This document shows, piece after piece, positions 11,748 to 35,849 of a DNA stretch of 48,713 bases. The position numbers and the translations under genes are program-made. The notes below the pieces were generated by a model. It was not told the DNA's origin and searched no databases. It was given only the letters and a program-made list of their open reading frames with translations. Source of the DNA: Candidatus Heimdallarchaeota archaeon (GTDB lineage: Archaea; Asgardarchaeota; Wukongarchaeia; Wukongarchaeales; JBHIFL01); the NCBI GenBank assembly GCA_046761065.1, contig JBHIFL010000025.1, positions 1 to 48,713 on the forward strand, read 5' to 3'. The first letter of the stretch is position 1. The number at the start of each line of letters is the position of its first letter.

Positions 11748-12587
11748 TTAATCTCCGCCCTTTTCAGCTTCCCCGATCATCGGGACAAACCGGACTGAAC
11801 TTATATAAGTCGTGAAGATATCATCGCCCTGTTTTTGGACAAGAGTAAGATTTTGGATATATTGTGGGCTGCCCAAAGGGAGTATGAGTAGTCCCCCATC
11901 ATCTTTGAGCTGCTGAATGAGGGGGGGAGGGATGTGGTTAACAGCGCATGTGATGATTATGCAATCGTAAGGTGCGTGCTCCTCCCATCCGAAATATCCA
12001 TCAGCCCACTTGACATCCACATTCTCATACCCCAAGTTCTGCAACCGCTCTGCGGCACTCTCCGCCAATTTTTCTCGGATTTCAATGGTGTAAACCTCTT
12101 GACAGAGCTCGGCGAGGACGGCAGCCTGATACCCCGATCCTGTTCCAATTTCAAGGACCCGCTCTGATCCATTCAGCTGTAACGCTTGAGTCATCAAAGC
12201 GACTATGTAAGGCTGTGAGATCGTTTGTCCCTCAGCAATAGGGAGCGGATGATCTTGATAGGCGTAATCCCATAAATCTTCATCCACAAACAAATGCCTA
12301 GGTATTCGTCCCATGACTTCTAAGACTCGAGAATCGTTAATGTCCTTCGCCTTCAGTTGAAACTGCACCATTGCTCTCCGAGCTTCTACGAACTCGTCGC
12401 TCTCAGTTTGGGTTCCTACTTCGACAAGTGTTTCAATAGAGGTTTCAACTTCTGGTGACCCCGATTTAGTTTCTTCTTCTATTTCTTGTCCAATACAACC
12501 TGCGAATACCAATACGAACAATAGGGGGATTAAAACTGCACGTATCCCGCTCCTCTTAGGTTTGTTGATCAGCCGTCTTGCCTCCAT
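11748..12587 (-). CDS. pcm: Protein-L-isoaspartate O-methyltransferase with an N-terminal lipoprotein-like signal
   Basis: [25 protein letters not shown] and VRFVPM motifs. Confidence 0.93.
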
Positions 12588-23534: not shown

Positions 23535-23568
23535 GTTTAATTTTCCTATATGATACTGGTGTTAAGCA

Positions 23569-24148: not shown

Positions 24149-25221
24149 TCCTCATGGTACCGCAGACGCAGTTCCGCTTGCGAGCAGTCTTCTATACGCC
24201 CATGGCTAAACCATTAGGGGTCAATGTACCGGGGAGTTCCACCAGTACAATCCCGGGGACAGCGCCCTTAGTCGTCGAGACCACCGCAGAGAATCCGCTG
24301 GTTTCCATTGCCCACAAAATTACTGAAGGGACTTTAGGGCAACTCCCAGTCAAGGCTCTTCGGGAAATTATCGATGAGCTGCAGACCGTTAGTGGAGAAG
24401 GGGTGTCCAAATCAGGTACGAAAACGGAGATGATCCAACGCATTCTCGCTTCCCAACACAAAGATGCCGCGATCCAGCGGTTCCTCATTGATAAAGATGT
24501 CCGGGAACAACAGAAACAGGAACGACTCATCTTGAAGCTCTTTACCAGTCTTCGGGGTGCCTTACGCCAAGCGGGGAAGGAAATCCTGGAGGAACTCCAC
24601 CTCCCCTACAGTATGCCAGGATTACCAGAGGATTCGTTACCCAAAGGTGCCCATCGACCAGGCGAATGTCCTGACCCCGAGGAAGAATGCCTGTTATGCC
24701 GCGTCTTTGGCTCGCTGAACCACGCCTCTCTTTTCCGGAATTATACCCCACCGTTAGTGGACGACCCTGAGACCAAGTTGGGCATCCACCAGGAAGTGAA
24801 TCACGTCTTAATCCGCACTCATGCCCGCAACGTCCACCGTCCAGATGGGAACACCCTCAACTTCAACCAACAATATTTTGCGGGCGAATTCATTACGTAC
24901 CTCCAGTTTCCCAACGGCCGCCCGAAGCCCATAACCTTGGGATTTCTGCTCAATTGCCTGGAACGCTGTACCGATGTGGGGGCCGCGAAGGCGTGGGGCG
25001 CCGGGAAACTGTTCCTCCGGGCCTACACGTTGGAAAAGGTCGAATTCACCTATGCGCGGGAATGGGACGGGGGAGCTTTTCAGTTAGTTCGCAAAGAGAC
25101 GGTCATACCCCTCAAAGCTGAACTGGAACACGCCTTCGAAGCCTATGAGCAGTGGCTAGCCCAAATTGTAACAAAACCTAGCGAATCGAGTGAGACCCAT
25201 GAAGGGGAGGTGACTGCATGA
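24145..25221 (+). CDS. Cas7-like RAMP protein with a SAP/HEH-like insertion
   Basis: N-terminal beta strand; TSLRGALR (the RAMP SLKG.LR helix); H...EC......CLLCRVFGS; C-terminal Gly loop VGAAKAWGAGK. The start is likely GTG 24145 after gaggtg, overlapping the upstream TGA. Confidence 0.82.
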   Translation: MILMVPQTQFRLRAVFYTPMAKPLGVNVPGSSTSTIPGTAPLVVETTAENPLVSIAHKITEGTLGQLPVKALREIIDELQTVSGEGVSKSGTKTEMIQRILASQHKDAAIQRFLIDKDVREQQKQERLILKLFTSLRGALRQAGKEILEELHLPYSMPGLPEDSLPKGAHRPGECPDPEEECLLCRVFGSLNHASLFRNYTPPLVDDPETKLGIHQEVNHVLIRTHARNVHRPDGNTLNFNQQYFAGEFITYLQFPNGRPKPITLGFLLNCLERCTDVGAAKAWGAGKLFLRAYTLEKVEFTYAREWDGGAFQLVRKETVIPLKAELEHAFEAYEQWLAQIVTKPSESSETHEGEVTA

Positions 25222-26108
25222 TTGCGCGCCTCATCGCGGAAACCCTGACCCCGATTGTGACGAAGTCCCGATTCCTACGGGTACGTGGCAGCCGCGGGGT
25301 GGTGTCCAATCGGCCTTATCTGGAACTGGAGGCGCCGGCTCGCCATCAATGCCGCACGACCCTGATCGTGAAGCAAGGCGCGCATGGGTTGCCAGTCTAC
25401 CGGCGCGCGTATATGGGGTACTTGCACCTCGATTTCAAAGCCCGAACGCAGAAGCAGACCAATCGGAAAATTCACGCATTACTCCAACTCCAATGTGTCG
25501 GAAAGCTCACCGCATGGGGTTACGGGGCCATTCGCTGGGTTTTACACAAGGTGTATCATCGACAAGCATCGGGTCACACGTTTCGCCCACGGTTCCGGAT
25601 TCTCAAGGGCTTACTCTCGGATCTGACCTTCCATGAGCGCCAGCTGGCTATGGCTGCGCTCCTGCACGATTTGGTGGACACCGATATGCACCCCTCCAAG
25701 TTGGGGCGGGCCGTCACGATCCCCGATCCCTATGTGCGGTGGTTGTGTACACAGCATCACGCCGCAAAGGCGCACTCCGATAATCCCGATTTGCAGTTCT
25801 TGCAAGAAGCGGATGTTCGGACGTCACGCTATGCCCGCCTCCTCTCTGTATCCACACGGCGCCGCAAGCTGGCTCCGGTCAATACGCAACAGCTCGCCCA
25901 ACAACTCGAAGAGGCCGCCCACCACTCGGTTTATAAACTCTACACAGTTATCTACCATTCACAAGAACTAACGCAGTTCACCGCATCCAAAACCCATCCT
26001 ACCGAGACGCTCCGGAATCACCTCATTGGGGTGGTGAATTGGGTGTTGTTCCTGGTGCGAACACGCGTTTCTACCTCTTTACATGCTTCGGCAGCCCTCG
26101 TGGGATAG
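25218..26108 (+). CDS. Cas5-like RAMP fused to an HD nuclease domain
   Basis: N-terminal LIAETLTPIV strand and Gly loop VGKLTAWGYGAI, then AALLHDL, HH, ADVRTS and C-terminal ETLRNHL. ATGA overlap with the upstream gene. Confidence 0.78.
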   Translation: MIARLIAETLTPIVTKSRFLRVRGSRGVVSNRPYLELEAPARHQCRTTLIVKQGAHGLPVYRRAYMGYLHLDFKARTQKQTNRKIHALLQLQCVGKLTAWGYGAIRWVLHKVYHRQASGHTFRPRFRILKGLLSDLTFHERQLAMAALLHDLVDTDMHPSKLGRAVTIPDPYVRWLCTQHHAAKAHSDNPDLQFLQEADVRTSRYARLLSVSTRRRKLAPVNTQQLAQQLEEAAHHSVYKLYTVIYHSQELTQFTASKTHPTETLRNHLIGVVNWVLFLVRTRVSTSLHASAALVG

Positions 26109-26260
26109 CTGGGTGGAACTCCCGGCCTTGTCGAGGTGGAAGATCCTCGGGTCGCAGATGAGCCATCACTCCGTGGTGAAACCCGAGCGAGAGGACCCAC
26201 ACTCGGCGGTGTGGCCACGACCTCCTCGTTGAGGGGCTTTCATGCAACAAGGAGCGAAAA
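25915..26260 (+). repeat. 346 bp direct repeat, copy 1 (3' end of cas5-HD plus RNA)
   Basis: Colinear without indels with 30781..31126 (offset 4866). Confidence 0.95.
26079..26260 (+). ncRNA. Putative structured RAMP-associated RNA, copy 1
   Basis: cUUCGg hairpin (tgc-ttcg-gca); stems gctggg/cccggc, ctcgggt/acccgag, tcact/ggtga and ccacac/gtgtgg; closing pairs gccctcg/tgaggggc and ttacatg/catgcaa; near-identical second copy. Confidence 0.7.
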
Positions 26261-26261
26261 G

Positions 26262-27944
26262 CTAGTATCCAATCGCTTCAGATTCAAAGCTAAGGAAGTG
26301 CCACTCCACGCCACCATAAAGGAGATTCTGCTTGGAGTCAACGACAATACCGACGGGTCTGGCCCAGTTGCCGATCTCTTTGTCAATGTAAGCAATTTGA
26401 TGTCCCATCTCTATGAGCTTAGTAGAGGTTTCCTTGGGGAATCTACTGTCAATTTGTACCTCACTCGTTTCCCGCGTGATCCTTGGGGCCTCGATTGCCG
26501 ACTGGATGTCCATCCCGAAGTCAATAACGTGAACGATGGTCTGAACGATAGATGTCTGAATAGCTCTCCCACCAGGGGCTCCAATAGCCATGAAGGGTTC
26601 TCCATCTTTCAGGAGGATGGTTGGACAGACGTTCTGGATTCGACGCTTTCTTCCCGAGATTGAATTTGCATGCCCTGGTTCTGGATTAAGCCCGTACATT
26701 GCATTATTCATAACAATTCCTGTTTCAGGGATGACTACTCCACTACCAAAGGTATCAACAAGGGTTTGGTTTATTGCCACCAAGTTTCTATCTTTGTCAG
26801 CCACTGTAAGGGCAGTTGTACATTCTTCATATGGCCATGGGTTACCCGGGGTTATTTCAAGGGCTTTCTGAAAGTTGATCCGTTGTTTCTGAAGCATCTT
26901 GGCATATTCCTTGGAAACAAGCCCTCGTTGAGGGACATTGATAAACTCAGGATCCCCCATATACTCGAATCTGTCGGCATAAGCGAGGCCGATAGCCTCA
27001 GCCATGATGTGGAGATGTTCCAGGGATCCGAACCCATATCCGGCGAGATCGAACCCTTCAAGAATATTTAAAATCTCCATGAGGGTCGTCCCGGCGTGAC
27101 TCGGATCGTAAATTACTTCAAAGCCTCGGTATGATCCAGGAAGGGGGGTGATGACAAGGGGCTCGTACATGGCGAGGTCTTCTGCGGTGATCAGCCCATT
27201 ATTTTTTGCCATGTCTTTAATAATAGCCTTGGCGATCTCTCCCTTGTAGAAAGCGTCGGGCCCCTCCTCTGCGATGAGGCGGAGGGACTTTGCCAGATCT
27301 TTATTGGCGAGTATATCCGGAGTTGCTTTGATGGAGTGGGTGTAGGGTGTTGGAGGATACTTCCCCTCCTTAAGGAATATCCTCTGCCACTCTGGAAAAT
27401 TCGAGAATCGGTGCATAGTCTTCACGATATGGGATGTGGTCCACCAGCCCACCACGAACCCCTCTTCTGCTATCTTAATGGCTGGTTCTAGAACCTCTTT
27501 AAGCTCCATCGTCCCATAGAGCTCTAGGGCTTTCGCTAGGCCCGCGACCGTACCTGGGACGGTTGAAGCCTTATAGCCTACTATATTGGCGTCATCCTTG
27601 ACTCGTCTCCATCCCATCCACCCAGGCTCTATTTCATCAAGAAGTTCATACATTTCAGGAGTGCAATTCTTTGATGGGCGACCCACATAGTCGATGATGA
27701 TGTTCTTCCCACTGATATGAATCGCCATGACCCCCTCCCCACCAATGCCATTCATGGCCGGCTCGACAACGCAGTCCACAAATGCAGCTGCCACAGCGGC
27801 GTCGATAGCGTTTCCTCCCTTTCGCATGGCTTCAATTCCTGTCTTGCTTATGAGGGGGTGTTTCGCTGCAACCATTCCATGCTTTGCCACACAGCAGTCC
27901 CTAATTGCCTTCTCCCACTTATGCTGTTGATAAATGTACGCCAA
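26262..27944 (-). CDS. ggt: Gamma-glutamyltransferase
   Basis: GGNAIDAAVA, GIGGEG and VPGTV motifs, autocleavage Thr (CTTALTVAD), FGSG and GAPGG. Confidence 0.95.
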   Translation of the reverse strand: MAYIYQQHKWEKAIRDCCVAKHGMVAAKHPLISKTGIEAMRKGGNAIDAAVAAAFVDCVVEPAMNGIGGEGVMAIHISGKNIIIDYVGRPSKNCTPEMYELLDEIEPGWMGWRRVKDDANIVGYKASTVPGTVAGLAKALELYGTMELKEVLEPAIKIAEEGFVVGWWTTSHIVKTMHRFSNFPEWQRIFLKEGKYPPTPYTHSIKATPDILANKDLAKSLRLIAEEGPDAFYKGEIAKAIIKDMAKNNGLITAEDLAMYEPLVITPLPGSYRGFEVIYDPSHAGTTLMEILNILEGFDLAGYGFGSLEHLHIMAEAIGLAYADRFEYMGDPEFINVPQRGLVSKEYAKMLQKQRINFQKALEITPGNPWPYEECTTALTVADKDRNLVAINQTLVDTFGSGVVIPETGIVMNNAMYGLNPEPGHANSISGRKRRIQNVCPTILLKDGEPFMAIGAPGGRAIQTSIVQTIVHVIDFGMDIQSAIEAPRITRETSEVQIDSRFPKETSTKLIEMGHQIAYIDKEIGNWARPVGIVVDSKQNLLYGGVEWHFLSFESEAIGY

Positions 27945-30667: not shown

Positions 30668-30780
30668 GAACAAGGTGAAATCTTTCCGTCGACCTCAAGA
30701 GGAACGATCCGTTGCTAAGGAATCTCATACTAATTTGGACACATTAATCCCGGAATCGACAGCTTGATGTGTCCCTAATC

Positions 30781-30974
30781 CCGCCCACTGTTCGATCTTC
30801 CGCTTGTATTCGATGATTTACCACTCGGAGGAATGGCACCAAATTATCGCGGCCAAAGCCCATCCTACCGAGACTCTCCGGAATCACCTCATTGGGGTGG
30901 CGAACTGGGTGTTGTTCCTGGTGCGAATGCGCGCCTTTCCTCCCTTACATGCTTCGGCAGCCCTCGTAGGACAG
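30781..30974 (+). pseudogene. Orphan 3' fragment of a diverged cas5-HD paralog
   Basis: Encodes AHCSIFRLYSMIYHSEEWHQIIAAKAHPTETLRNHLIGVANWVLFLV, versus AHHSVYKLYTVIYHSQELTQFTASKTHPTETLRNHLIGVVNWVLFLV in the full gene. Confidence 0.88.
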
Positions 30975-31126
30975 CCGGGTGGAACTCCCGGCCCTGTCGA
31001 GGTGGAAGATCCTCGGGTCGCAGATGAGCCATCACTCCGTGGTGAAACCCGAGCGAGAGGACCCACACTCGGCGGTGTGGCCACGACCTCCTCGTTGAGG
31101 GGCTTTCATGCAACAAGGAGCGAAAA
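30945..31126 (+). ncRNA. Putative structured RAMP-associated RNA, copy 2
   Basis: Four substitutions in 182 nt relative to 26079..26260; the last 132 nt are identical. Confidence 0.7.
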
Positions 31127-31128
31127 AC

Positions 31129-32661
31129 ATGATCTTGGTGCTCGACTTCGGCGGGCAGTATTGCCACCTCATAGGACGACGAATCAGGGAGCATGGGGTG
31201 TATTCCGAAATTGCTCCCTACGATATAACCCTCAAAGACCTCCAGCGGCTACATAAACAATTCAACGTGAGAGGCTTAGTGTTTTCAGGAGGCCCCGCCA
31301 GCGTGTATGAGCCCAGGGCGCCGCGACCAGATCCGAGCTTTTTGGGATTAGATATCCCGATTTTGGGGCTCTGTTATGGCCATCAACTGATCGCCCACAT
31401 GGCTGGAGGACAGGTTGAGCCAGCGAAACAGCGGGAGTACGGGATCGCGTATGTCACCATCGACCGACCGGTGGGCGTCTTGCGGGGAGTCGGGGAGACA
31501 GAGAAGGTGTGGATGAGTCACGGGGACACGGTGTTCGGGCTCCCCGCCGACTATGAGGTCTTAGCGCATACCGAAAATTGTCCGGTGGCCGCGTTTCGGC
31601 ACCAGCAAAAGCCGATCTATGGGTTGCAGTGGCACCCGGAGGTGGTGCATACCGAAAAGGGCATGCAGATGCTCCATAACTTCATTTTTGAAGTTTGTAA
31701 ATGTGACGCGAACTGGAAAATGGAAGATGTTGTGGAAAAAGCGAAAAATGAAATCCGAACGACGGTGGGGGAGGGGAAAGCGATTATCGCCCTAAGTGGG
31801 GGGATTGACTCCAGTGTGGCAACAGTTCTTGCAGCTAAGGCCCTTGGTAACAGACTGACAGCCGTGTTCGTGGACCACGGCTTTATGCGCGAGAACGAAC
31901 CGGCTTTTGTAAAGAGGGTATTTCAGAAGTTCAAAATAAACCTCGAAATGGTCAATGCCCGCGAGCGATTCCTAGCTAAACTTGCGGGAATCGTTGATCC
32001 TGAAGCAAAACGAAAAATTATCGGCGAGGAATTCATCCGGGTGTTCGAAGAAATCGCCGAGAGATCCGGGGCCGAATACCTCATTCAAGGGACTATTTAT
32101 CCAGACCGAATCGAGTCTGGCGTTAGGAAACTGTCGGATAAAATCAAAACCCATCACAACGTGGCGGGGTTGCCTACTCGAATTCGGTTCAAGGCAATTG
32201 AGGAACCCCTTTGTGACCTGTATAAAGATGAGGTGAGAAAAGTTGCCCAACTGCTGGGCCTACCAAAGGAACTCGTTGGGAGACAACCCTTCCCCGGCCC
32301 CGGTCTAGCCGTCCGGATTATCGGGGAATTAACCCCCGAGAAAATTAATATCGCAAAGAAAGCGGATCAAATTGTGCGGGAAGAAATCGAAGCCGGCGGA
32401 TTGCAAGAGCAGTTGTGGCAGTATTTCGCAGTAGTAACCGACACAAACGCCACAGGCGTCAAAGGCGATGCCCGGGCGTATGGGACTGTTATTGCGGTCC
32501 GAGTGGTGGAAAGTCGTGAAGCAATGACCGCGAGCTTTGCGAAACTCCCCTATGCCGTATTGGAACGCATCTCGACGCGAATCACCAATGAAGTGCCTCA
32601 AGTTACTCACGTGGTCTATGATATAACCCATAAGCCTCCTGCCACAATCGAATGGGAGTAA
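31129..32661 (+). CDS. guaA: GMP synthase (glutamine-hydrolysing), fused form
   Basis: ILVLDFGGQY, GLCYGHQ, HPEV, SGGIDS, QGTIYPD and KPPATIEWE motifs. The start is ATG 31129 or 31108. Confidence 0.97.
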   Translation: MILVLDFGGQYCHLIGRRIREHGVYSEIAPYDITLKDLQRLHKQFNVRGLVFSGGPASVYEPRAPRPDPSFLGLDIPILGLCYGHQLIAHMAGGQVEPAKQREYGIAYVTIDRPVGVLRGVGETEKVWMSHGDTVFGLPADYEVLAHTENCPVAAFRHQQKPIYGLQWHPEVVHTEKGMQMLHNFIFEVCKCDANWKMEDVVEKAKNEIRTTVGEGKAIIALSGGIDSSVATVLAAKALGNRLTAVFVDHGFMRENEPAFVKRVFQKFKINLEMVNARERFLAKLAGIVDPEAKRKIIGEEFIRVFEEIAERSGAEYLIQGTIYPDRIESGVRKLSDKIKTHHNVAGLPTRIRFKAIEEPLCDLYKDEVRKVAQLLGLPKELVGRQPFPGPGLAVRIIGELTPEKINIAKKADQIVREEIEAGGLQEQLWQYFAVVTDTNATGVKGDARAYGTVIAVRVVESREAMTASFAKLPYAVLERISTRITNEVPQVTHVVYDITHKPPATIEWE

Positions 32662-33609: not shown

Positions 33610-33765
33610 TGGCGGGCCCGACGAGATTTGAATTCACGTTTACTGCCTACAAGGCTAGTAAATCTCGCGACCCTCTGGTTTCTTCATATGTGAGTTAAAT
33701 CACTATGAACCGAAGCCGGATGCTTTTGACGCGTGGATGCTCTATCCATACTGAGCTACGGGCCC
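33610..33765 (-). tRNA. tRNA-Arg(UCG) with three apparent introns and encoded CCA
   Basis: Acceptor GGGCCCG/CGGGCCC-G-CCA, D stem GCTC/GAGC, anticodon TCG (33711-33713) and T arm GCGAG-TTCAAAT-CTCGT. Removing 17+30+31 nt gives a 78 nt cloverleaf. Confidence 0.85.
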
Positions 33766-33885
33766 GGAGTTGTATTCAATATTATTCTGAATGCTGAAGT
33801 GGTTTAATTGTCGTACTAAATGTGTCAAATAAGGGTATATCAACATTATGGCAGTTGAATAAAAGTTTGATTGGTGGAGTTCAAG
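33671..33885. repeat. 215 bp direct repeat, copy 1 (5' two thirds of tRNA-Arg plus upstream region)
   Basis: Colinear with 35635..35849, with scattered substitutions. Confidence 0.95.
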
Positions 33886-35634: not shown

Positions 35635-35849
35635 CCCTCTGGTTTCTTCATATGCGATTTAAATCACTATGAACCGAAGCCGGATGCTTTTGACGCGTGG
35701 ATGCTCTATCCATACTGAGCTACGGGCCCAGAGTTGTATTCAACATTATTCTGAATGCTGAAGTGATTTAGTTGTCATACTAAATGTGTCGAATAAGGGC
35801 TTTTCAACATTATGGCAGTTGAATAAAGGCATGATTGGCGGAGTTCAAG
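35635..35849. repeat. 215 bp direct repeat, copy 2, containing a 3'-truncated tRNA-Arg pseudogene (35635..35729, minus strand)
   Basis: Lacks the T arm and the 3' acceptor strand. Confidence 0.92.

Follow-up and report, generated by a model that had tools for sequence, protein, structure and literature searches.

Array-less CRISPR derivatives of Asgard archaea, called ARAMP (Asgard RAMP), were reportedly described by Makarova and colleagues in the CRISPR Journal in 2020. ARAMP is related to the HRAMP systems of haloarchaea and mostly occurs with a distinct Cas1; both are CRISPR derivatives without an array and without a known RNA, and the mechanism of ARAMP is enigmatic (PMC8730458). Here, we consider a window, that is, the whole stretch of 48,713 nucleotides (nt) of contig JBHIFL010000025.1 from a Candidatus Heimdallarchaeota archaeon (assembly GCA_046761065.1), in which an operon of a Cas7-like gene and a gene with a fused HD domain (HD-fusion gene) ends in an RNA module. 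The host genome is a metagenome-assembled genome (MAG), 91% complete with 8% contamination. Like ARAMP, the locus has a diverged Cas7 homologue, a second, possibly RAMP-like protein with an HD nuclease, no array (none was found anywhere in the assembly) and a host of the Heimdall group of Asgard archaea. Unlike ARAMP as reviewed, where no RNA is mentioned (PMC8730458), it has a covarying RNA of about 190 nt, which ends the operon and is dispersed about 48 times in the genome. No Cas1 was found with Pfam PF01867 in this 91%-complete genome. An initial annotation of the window had taken the end of this RNA (26236-26290) for an 8-nt handle of the kind carried by class 1 CRISPR RNAs (crRNAs), followed by a possible guide. 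We consider it likely that 26236-26260 is the 3' end of a folded module that forms a portable 5' leader with a ribosome-binding site.

The module resembles the omega RNA of TnpB/IscB (OMEGA) in that effector gene and scaffold overlap at the 3' end of the gene, with the scaffold ending at the element boundary, and in its many decayed or solo copies. However, the effectors here are RAMP and HD proteins, not RuvC or HNH ones (no such Pfam domains are present in the operon), neither TnpA nor insertion sequence ends were seen, and the module tail would at the same time be a ribosome site at start codons. Also well known are small, dispersed elements that provide adjacent genes with expression signals, such as the Correia elements of Neisseria and the outward promoters of insertion sequences. 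As in those cases, the repeat lies just upstream of unrelated genes and would supply an expression signal. Unlike them, it would bring a ribosome site and not a promoter, with single-base precision, has no inverted terminal repeats, and is a covarying RNA of many helices tied to a CRISPR-derived operon.

Two copies of the module are present on the forward strand of the window. Both read CATGCAAC (26241-26248 and 31107-31114) and then AAGGAGCGAAAA (26249-26260 and 31115-31126), and they diverge from 26261 and 31127, respectively, just as the initial annotation had observed. With about 94% identity over 274 nt, they are the closest pair in a family whose members are 70-98% identical. Iterated nhmmer searches detected 48 copies of the 175-nt core (window 26083-26255) in the host genome, so the repeat in the window is a true one and not a chance one. 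The module forms the end of the Cas7-like/HD-fusion operon and occurs about 45 further times on its own. The structured core of copy 1, which has eight helices, occupies 26082..26245 (nhmmer family and covariance model R1), and a long form with about 100 nt extra upstream, starting near 25985, is common to copy 1 and 10 other copies. Copy 2 occupies 30948..31126 (R1 score 205.7 bits) and a putative Cas5-HD remnant, of the C-terminal part, extends from about 30771 (tblastn match 30771-30971).

The 3' edge of the element is sharp. When the whole region was compared with the genome by blastn, the matches to other copies all ended at 26254-26261, and their 5' starts were stepped from 24190 to 26132. 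This bears out one of the two options that the initial annotation had left for the 12-mer, namely that it is simply the element terminus. Outside the host genome, a clear copy was found in one other genome (a Sifarchaeum MAG) of the 150 in a sample of the phylum, and further copies were found in related metagenome contigs. A scan with a 19-mer pattern gave 34 genome matches, among which only the Sifarchaeum contig was real; three matches in IMG/VR fail the covariance model and are due to chance. No Rfam family was found for the module at gathering thresholds or at E values up to 10, searches of the literature for an Asgard RNA like it found nothing, and a protein-based scan of genome contigs found no relative. 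In another family of the phylum, an AT-rich minimal variant of 128 nt (G112:C3:2438-2565) matches the model with 36 bits (E 1.5e-10); it is without helices 2-3 and 7-8, yet ends in AACAAGAAG. Contigs C115 (1557-9036) and C131 (1253-2838) carry six and two partly worn copies, respectively, on the same strand and 0.7-2.5 kb apart. Small genes that by eye resemble toxin-antitoxin genes (PIN/VapC-like, AbrB/VapB-like and DUF433-like) lie between them in a cassette-like layout.

The fold was examined in two alignments, A2 with 27 copies, which was not fitted to a model, and A5 with 46 distinct copies, which was based on the model and takes in four metagenome copies and the one on the Sifarchaeum contig. 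Among the 46 distinct copies, 81.9% of cells are paired, compared with about 40% after sliding of the partners. Both sides have changed in 38 of 47 pairs, and the observed values were not reached by any shuffle. Since A5 was fitted to the model, it leans towards structure; A2, which was not, gives the same picture, and the eight helices are supported by both. The structure rests on covariation only, because folds of single sequences are no better than those of shuffles (z -0.3 to -0.4). RNAalifold returned almost no structure for all 27 rows of A2, and a subset with a hand-checked structure was used instead. The local hairpin of helix 1 does covary. The terminal domain (26214..26245, forward strand) is made of helix 7 (26214-26220 with 26240-26245) enclosing the hairpin of helix 8 (26222-26225 with 26233-26236), and compensatory changes occur at six of six and four of four pairs, respectively, in the 46 distinct copies. 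In the window copies themselves, C26218 and A26242 of helix 7 are mismatched, as read from the sequence.

The initial annotation had proposed that the fold closes at the octamer. Its last paired base, C26245, is indeed within the octamer, although the opposite strand is 26214-26220 in helix 7 and not the upstream ttacatg. That long-range closure, ttacatg with catgcaa, forms in 54% of cells, where column shuffles give 52.5%, and is not supported. The first five bases of the octamer (26241-26245) are the 3' side of helix 7. They follow the pattern Y-R-U-G-C, changing in step with their partners, and are to be read as one helix strand since all six pairs of the helix show compensatory changes. 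In the 29 well-anchored copies from which information content was calculated, octamer positions 1 to 8 carry 0.77, 0.98, 1.07, 1.55, 1.55, 1.10, 0.28 and 0.98 bit. The last three values belong to a single-stranded linker A-N-Y (26246..26248, forward strand), with almost any base at position 7 and a pyrimidine (C or U) at position 8. Outside the host genome, the octamer reads TGCGCAAT, CGTGCACG or CATACATC. It is thus not conserved as a sequence, and five of its bases sit in a covarying helix, so the crRNA-like handle did not hold up. Rather, the octamer is a composite of CAUGC, which completes the last covarying helix, and the loose linker AAC.

A class 1 crRNA and the module do share an order of structure, single-stranded conserved stretch and variable sequence, and here, too, a gene with a Cas7 fold adjoins. 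However, the handle of a class 1 crRNA is single-stranded and lies 3' of the hairpin, whereas octamer bases 1-5 are paired in helix 7. In addition, there is no invariant 8-nt handle, no array, no spacers of 30-40 nt and, for the one flank searched outside the genome (that of copy 1), no foreign match. By handle, array and spacers, the module falls outside the crRNA family; four defining features were looked for and none was found.

Could the octamer then provide a start codon? A conserved start at the ATG or GTG inside it was ruled out by a TAA two codons later in many copies. For the XPD-like helicase gene that follows the second copy on contig C36 (G000:C36:23530-23600), the octamer GTG is the only in-frame ATG, GTG or TTG before the FPY motif, and the module may supply the start codon of this gene itself. 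The frame of a MiaB-like gene on contig C1 (about 24840) is open back into the module and has no canonical start.

The most conserved stretch at the 3' end lies behind the octamer. AAGGAGC carries 1.1-1.8 bit and the G after it 0.85; the following bases carry 0.78, 0.50 and about 0.25 bit, so that conservation fades over 4-6 bases past AAGGAGC, with a small ATG signal at +7 to +9 and zero further out. The suggestion that a guide starts after CAAC is contradicted by this profile, where conservation drops after GCG-AAAA and not after CAAC. We predict, from conservation and spacing, that AAGGAGCG (26249..26256, forward strand) is a ribosome-binding site of the Shine-Dalgarno (SD) type, followed by an A-rich spacer that is also the 3' end of the element (26257..26260, forward strand), along which information falls from 0.78 to 0.24 bit and in which the blastn edge lies. 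In copy 2, the corresponding ribosome site is at 31115-31122. Candidate pairings that would sequester the site, with the 5' strand of helix 1 or the loop of helix 5, were rejected, being complementary to GGAGCG in 77% against 74-76% in column shuffles, and the tail is best drawn as single-stranded. The 12-mer would then consist of a single-stranded SD site with a GGAG core and an A-rich spacer.

The spacing of the site agrees with gene starts throughout the genome. Upstream of the first ATG of 2270 long open reading frames (ORFs), GGAG has a peak at -12 (96 occurrences, against a background of about 7), and the peaks of GAGG at -11/-12 and of GGTG at -10/-9 complete a SD pattern of the GGAGGUG type. 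A start codon at +6 or +7 after GCG places the GGAG of the module at -12/-13, which is the genome-wide optimum. We tallied 40 copies with an intact 3' end for ATG, GTG or TTG at +5 to +8 after GCG that opens an ORF of at least 85 residues. There are 13 such copies, compared with 2.5% at random genome positions (P about 1e-11); a stricter count of copies with a gene at +5 to +8 gives 11. The genes led by the module include those of GMP synthase (guaA), an Obg-like GTPase, a PhoU-like protein, a cyclophilin-like protein, the beta subunit of fumarase, an MptE-like kinase, ribosomal protein eL20/L18Ae, methenyl-H4MPT cyclohydrolase (Mch) and a radical SAM protein, and the Cas7-like gene of an island on C36 is likewise led by a copy. 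Their Pfam domains start at residues 1-5 of the ORFs, which are therefore the true N-termini of unrelated genes. After other copies, a class-III aminotransferase starts at +10 and a phosphofructokinase at +47, and metagenome copy L056 is followed in the same arrangement by A-ATPase subunit E.

The conservation of GGAG itself follows the presence of a gene. All 11 copies with a gene at +5 to +8 have it intact, whereas 22 of the 30 copies that lack such a gene have lost it, mostly to GAAG (Fisher 2.4e-5); even the strong copies C21_45384 and C2_74254 (E below 1e-44), which have no gene, read GAAG. In the window, copy 2 would serve guaA (31129..32661, forward strand), whose product has the Pfam domain GATase from residue 3 and also GMP_synt_C. 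Its ATG lies 6 nt after GCG, which places GGAG at -12, and the ATG inside the octamer of copy 2 (31108) is in frame with guaA, seven codons upstream. The site of copy 1, with no gene behind it, would be idle. Because the module ends 0-3 bases ahead of the start codon, it would act as a portable 5' leader that supplies the ribosome site of the downstream gene. The family, its covariation, the point at which conservation stops, the spacing and the association of GGAG with genes are observed; from these, we infer use of the site by ribosomes and transcription that continues from the module into the gene.

Several points weigh against this reading. GGAG is retained in eight copies that have no gene at +5 to +8, among them copy 1 and a copy on contig C4, so the constraint cannot lie solely in translation of a downstream gene; the C4 copy follows an intact HD-fusion gene, next to which the Cas7-like gene is partial. 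Weak copies are more decayed overall, which inflates the association of GGAG with genes. A portable leader accounts neither for the placement of the element within 3 bases of many start codons nor for the compensatory changes that keep the fold in solo copies. Finally, the complementarity of the site to the 3' end of 16S rRNA, which is absent from the assembly, is taken from general knowledge and from the genome-wide motif peak.

The placement at start codons might be explained if the element joined native ribosome sites by short homology of its GGAG and A-rich tail, in which case the 12-mer would be partly host-derived. We regard this as very doubtful. Such a mechanism would account for junctions just before start codons (0-3 bases before ATG at 11-13 loci), native genes commonly have GGAG at the same distance, and the tail is duplicated in tandem on C131 and C115. 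At C131:1425-1450 and C115:2460-2485, it reads AAGGAGCG, six bases, AAGGAGCG, four bases and ATG. However, what follows GGAG in the module, CG and then the A run, is conserved from copy to copy but rare at ordinary gene starts, which indicates that the tail comes from the element. More precisely, AAGGAGCG is found ahead of just 0.23% of ORF starts, and 9 occurrences of the 12-mer compare with an expectation of 0.5; the 12-mer therefore belongs to the element and not to a general consensus.

The maintenance of the fold in solo copies bears on another explanation, which is compatible with a portable leader and would add a layer to it. That is, the Cas7-like and HD proteins could recognise the module as a cis-regulatory 5' untranslated region, or a RAMP-like domain could cut it in the manner of Cas6 at a repeat hairpin. 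The system would thereby control how well some dozen housekeeping mRNAs, and that of the operon, are translated or how stable they are. A bare ribosome site would not need the compensatory changes; the terminal hairpin with its single-stranded tail resembles a repeat hairpin, and copy 1 and the C4 copy retain GGAG with no gene behind it. On C36, moreover, the Cas7-like/HD operon itself starts behind one copy, which has the promoter-like box AAACATTTAAATACC about 95 nt upstream of it, and finishes with another; the same unit of box and module leads the MptE-like gene on C50. However, the downstream genes share no function, both pairings with the SD site are complementary at the level of shuffles, as given above, and an identity of 70-98% exceeds that of typical regulons and is more like recent spread or gene conversion. 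On balance, we think such control rather unlikely. Two copies (L115:9560-9600 and C50 about 12340-12450) share the upstream unit of about 95 nt with its BRE/TATA-like box AAACATTTAAATACC, which suggests that the module can carry its own promoter.

The sequences behind the element were examined for guides. The flank of copy 1 (26261..26290, forward strand) is the antisense of the last codons of a gamma-glutamyltranspeptidase gene (ggt), according to the ORF table and Pfam PF01019, and would not be a guide; the ORF runs over 26262-27944 on the minus strand, and its stop codon (26262-26264) is one base from the end of the element. Except at one duplicated locus, the 40-nt flanks of the copies match nowhere else in the genome, and the flank of copy 1, which was the only one searched outside the genome, has no match in phage records or IMG/VR. 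The flanks are thus host gene starts or, for copy 1, the antisense of ggt.

These results bear on the idea of a scaffold with a flank-derived guide, in which the Cas7-like and HD proteins bind the RNA and the flank, like the guide of an omega RNA or the spacer behind a crRNA 5' handle, directs the complex to unoccupied copies of its own site (homing) or to matching nucleic acid. Several features would fit: the RNA and the 3' part of the effector gene overlap, and the RNA stops exactly at the element edge; the conserved scaffold at the 5' side and variable sequence at the 3' side have the polarity of a class 1 crRNA; a Cas7 fold and a Cas10-type HD domain are present in the proteins; truncation in steps at the 5' side, against a 3' end that stays fixed, resembles a mobile element; and full islands on C36 and C12 carry further large genes. 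However, no 8-nt stretch acts as an invariant handle, the conserved tail is a putative ribosome site at optimal spacing whose GGAG decays without a downstream gene, and the flanks are host gene starts with no other matches. Moreover, guides taken from the flank would explain homing to one site, not to a dozen different start codons. This idea was weakened by every test that the initial annotation had proposed, and we hold it to be improbable. As far as can be read from the sequences, the earlier interpretation is supported in part, and its combination of handle and guide is not supported.

The neighbouring operon gives the module its link to CRISPR. A Cas7-family RAMP gene with a SAP-like insert is located at 24154..25221 on the forward strand (PADLOC Csm3, E 0.006, and an AlphaFold model); 24154 is the start as called in the protein collection, and the longest ORF starts from 24055. 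The 14 best VIA-align matches of the AlphaFold model (mean pLDDT 65) are all of the Cas7 family, with Z of 8.2-10.9, and include Csf2, Csm3, gRAMP and type VII Cas7 from complexes of types III, IV, VII and I-D. The second gene (25218..26108, forward strand) encodes a ferredoxin-like, possibly RAMP, domain fused to a Cas10-type HD domain, according to VIA-align and a PADLOC match to Cas6 (E 0.014). Residues 137-296 of its product match the HD domain of Csm1/Cas10 (6ifk_A, Z 9.9; 6mua_A, Z 8.5; model mean pLDDT near 65), and residues 1-118, modelled with low confidence, have generic ferredoxin-fold matches with Z of 6 or less. Foldseek found nothing in the PDB for this model. The protein context assumed by the initial annotation therefore stands for the Cas7 fold and the Cas10-type HD domain, but the ferredoxin-like domain cannot be called Cas5. 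All 22 homologues of the Cas7-like protein, and likewise the 36 of the HD-fusion protein, come from Heimdall-labelled MAGs or metagenomes.

The last 25 nt of the HD-fusion gene overlap the RNA core. Its TAG stop (26106-26108) is CAG in most homologues (alignment A3), where the ORF is 20 residues longer and runs through the RNA core (PGGTPGPVE.ED...); the stop in the window is created by a U that is part of a G-U pair. The RNA overlaps the 3' end of the gene, since most homologues read through the first RNA helices, and the extended tail of the HD-fusion protein looks like incidental translation of a conserved RNA. The GC content rises from about 0.30 to 0.50-0.59 at 23550 and drops to about 0.48 past 26260 (genome mean 0.42), and these steps indicate that the operon and the RNA form a distinct block. 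Full islands on C36 (11000-26000) and C12 (5500-17500) contain, divergent from the Cas7-like/HD operon, a giant ORF, an Lhr/MrfA-like DEAD helicase and a calcineurin-like phosphoesterase. The giant ORFs (1473 residues on C36 and 1302 on C12) have no Pfam, PADLOC or PDB sequence match, and none is present at the window locus. An RNA copy lies at either side of the operon on C36; none was detected in the C12 island.

Given the Cas7 fold and the Cas10-type HD domain of the proteins encoded next to it, which are folds that bind RNA, the scaffold could have a role as an RNA partner. Tentatively, the module might be the RNA of the array-less Cas7/HD (ARAMP) proteins, with the RAMP backbone holding the tail and the adjoining host sequence, and we assign this a low probability. 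If true, it would imply either a flank guide for homing to gene starts or a CRISPR-derived complex that gates translation in cis, and in the latter form a dozen housekeeping genes, including guaA, and the operon itself would be gated.

Other features of the window lie apart from the operon. At 463-1427, a W-L-V-K-T-D...G...W...Y motif recurs in the translation of six tandem units of about 155 nt each, and the product resembles a repeat protein of the beta-propeller type. A direct repeat of 215 nt with 93% identity is present at 33671-33885 and 35635-35849. No tRNA was found by ARAGORN anywhere in the window.

For the Cas7-like/HD system of this archaeon, the end of the associated RNA module has thus been located, and its tail appears to be a functional-looking ribosome site rather than a crRNA handle. 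Any guide must be sought beyond 26260 or inside the scaffold. For the host, at least eleven unrelated genes of an essential type are fused within three bases of the element, and they would depend on translation signals derived from it.

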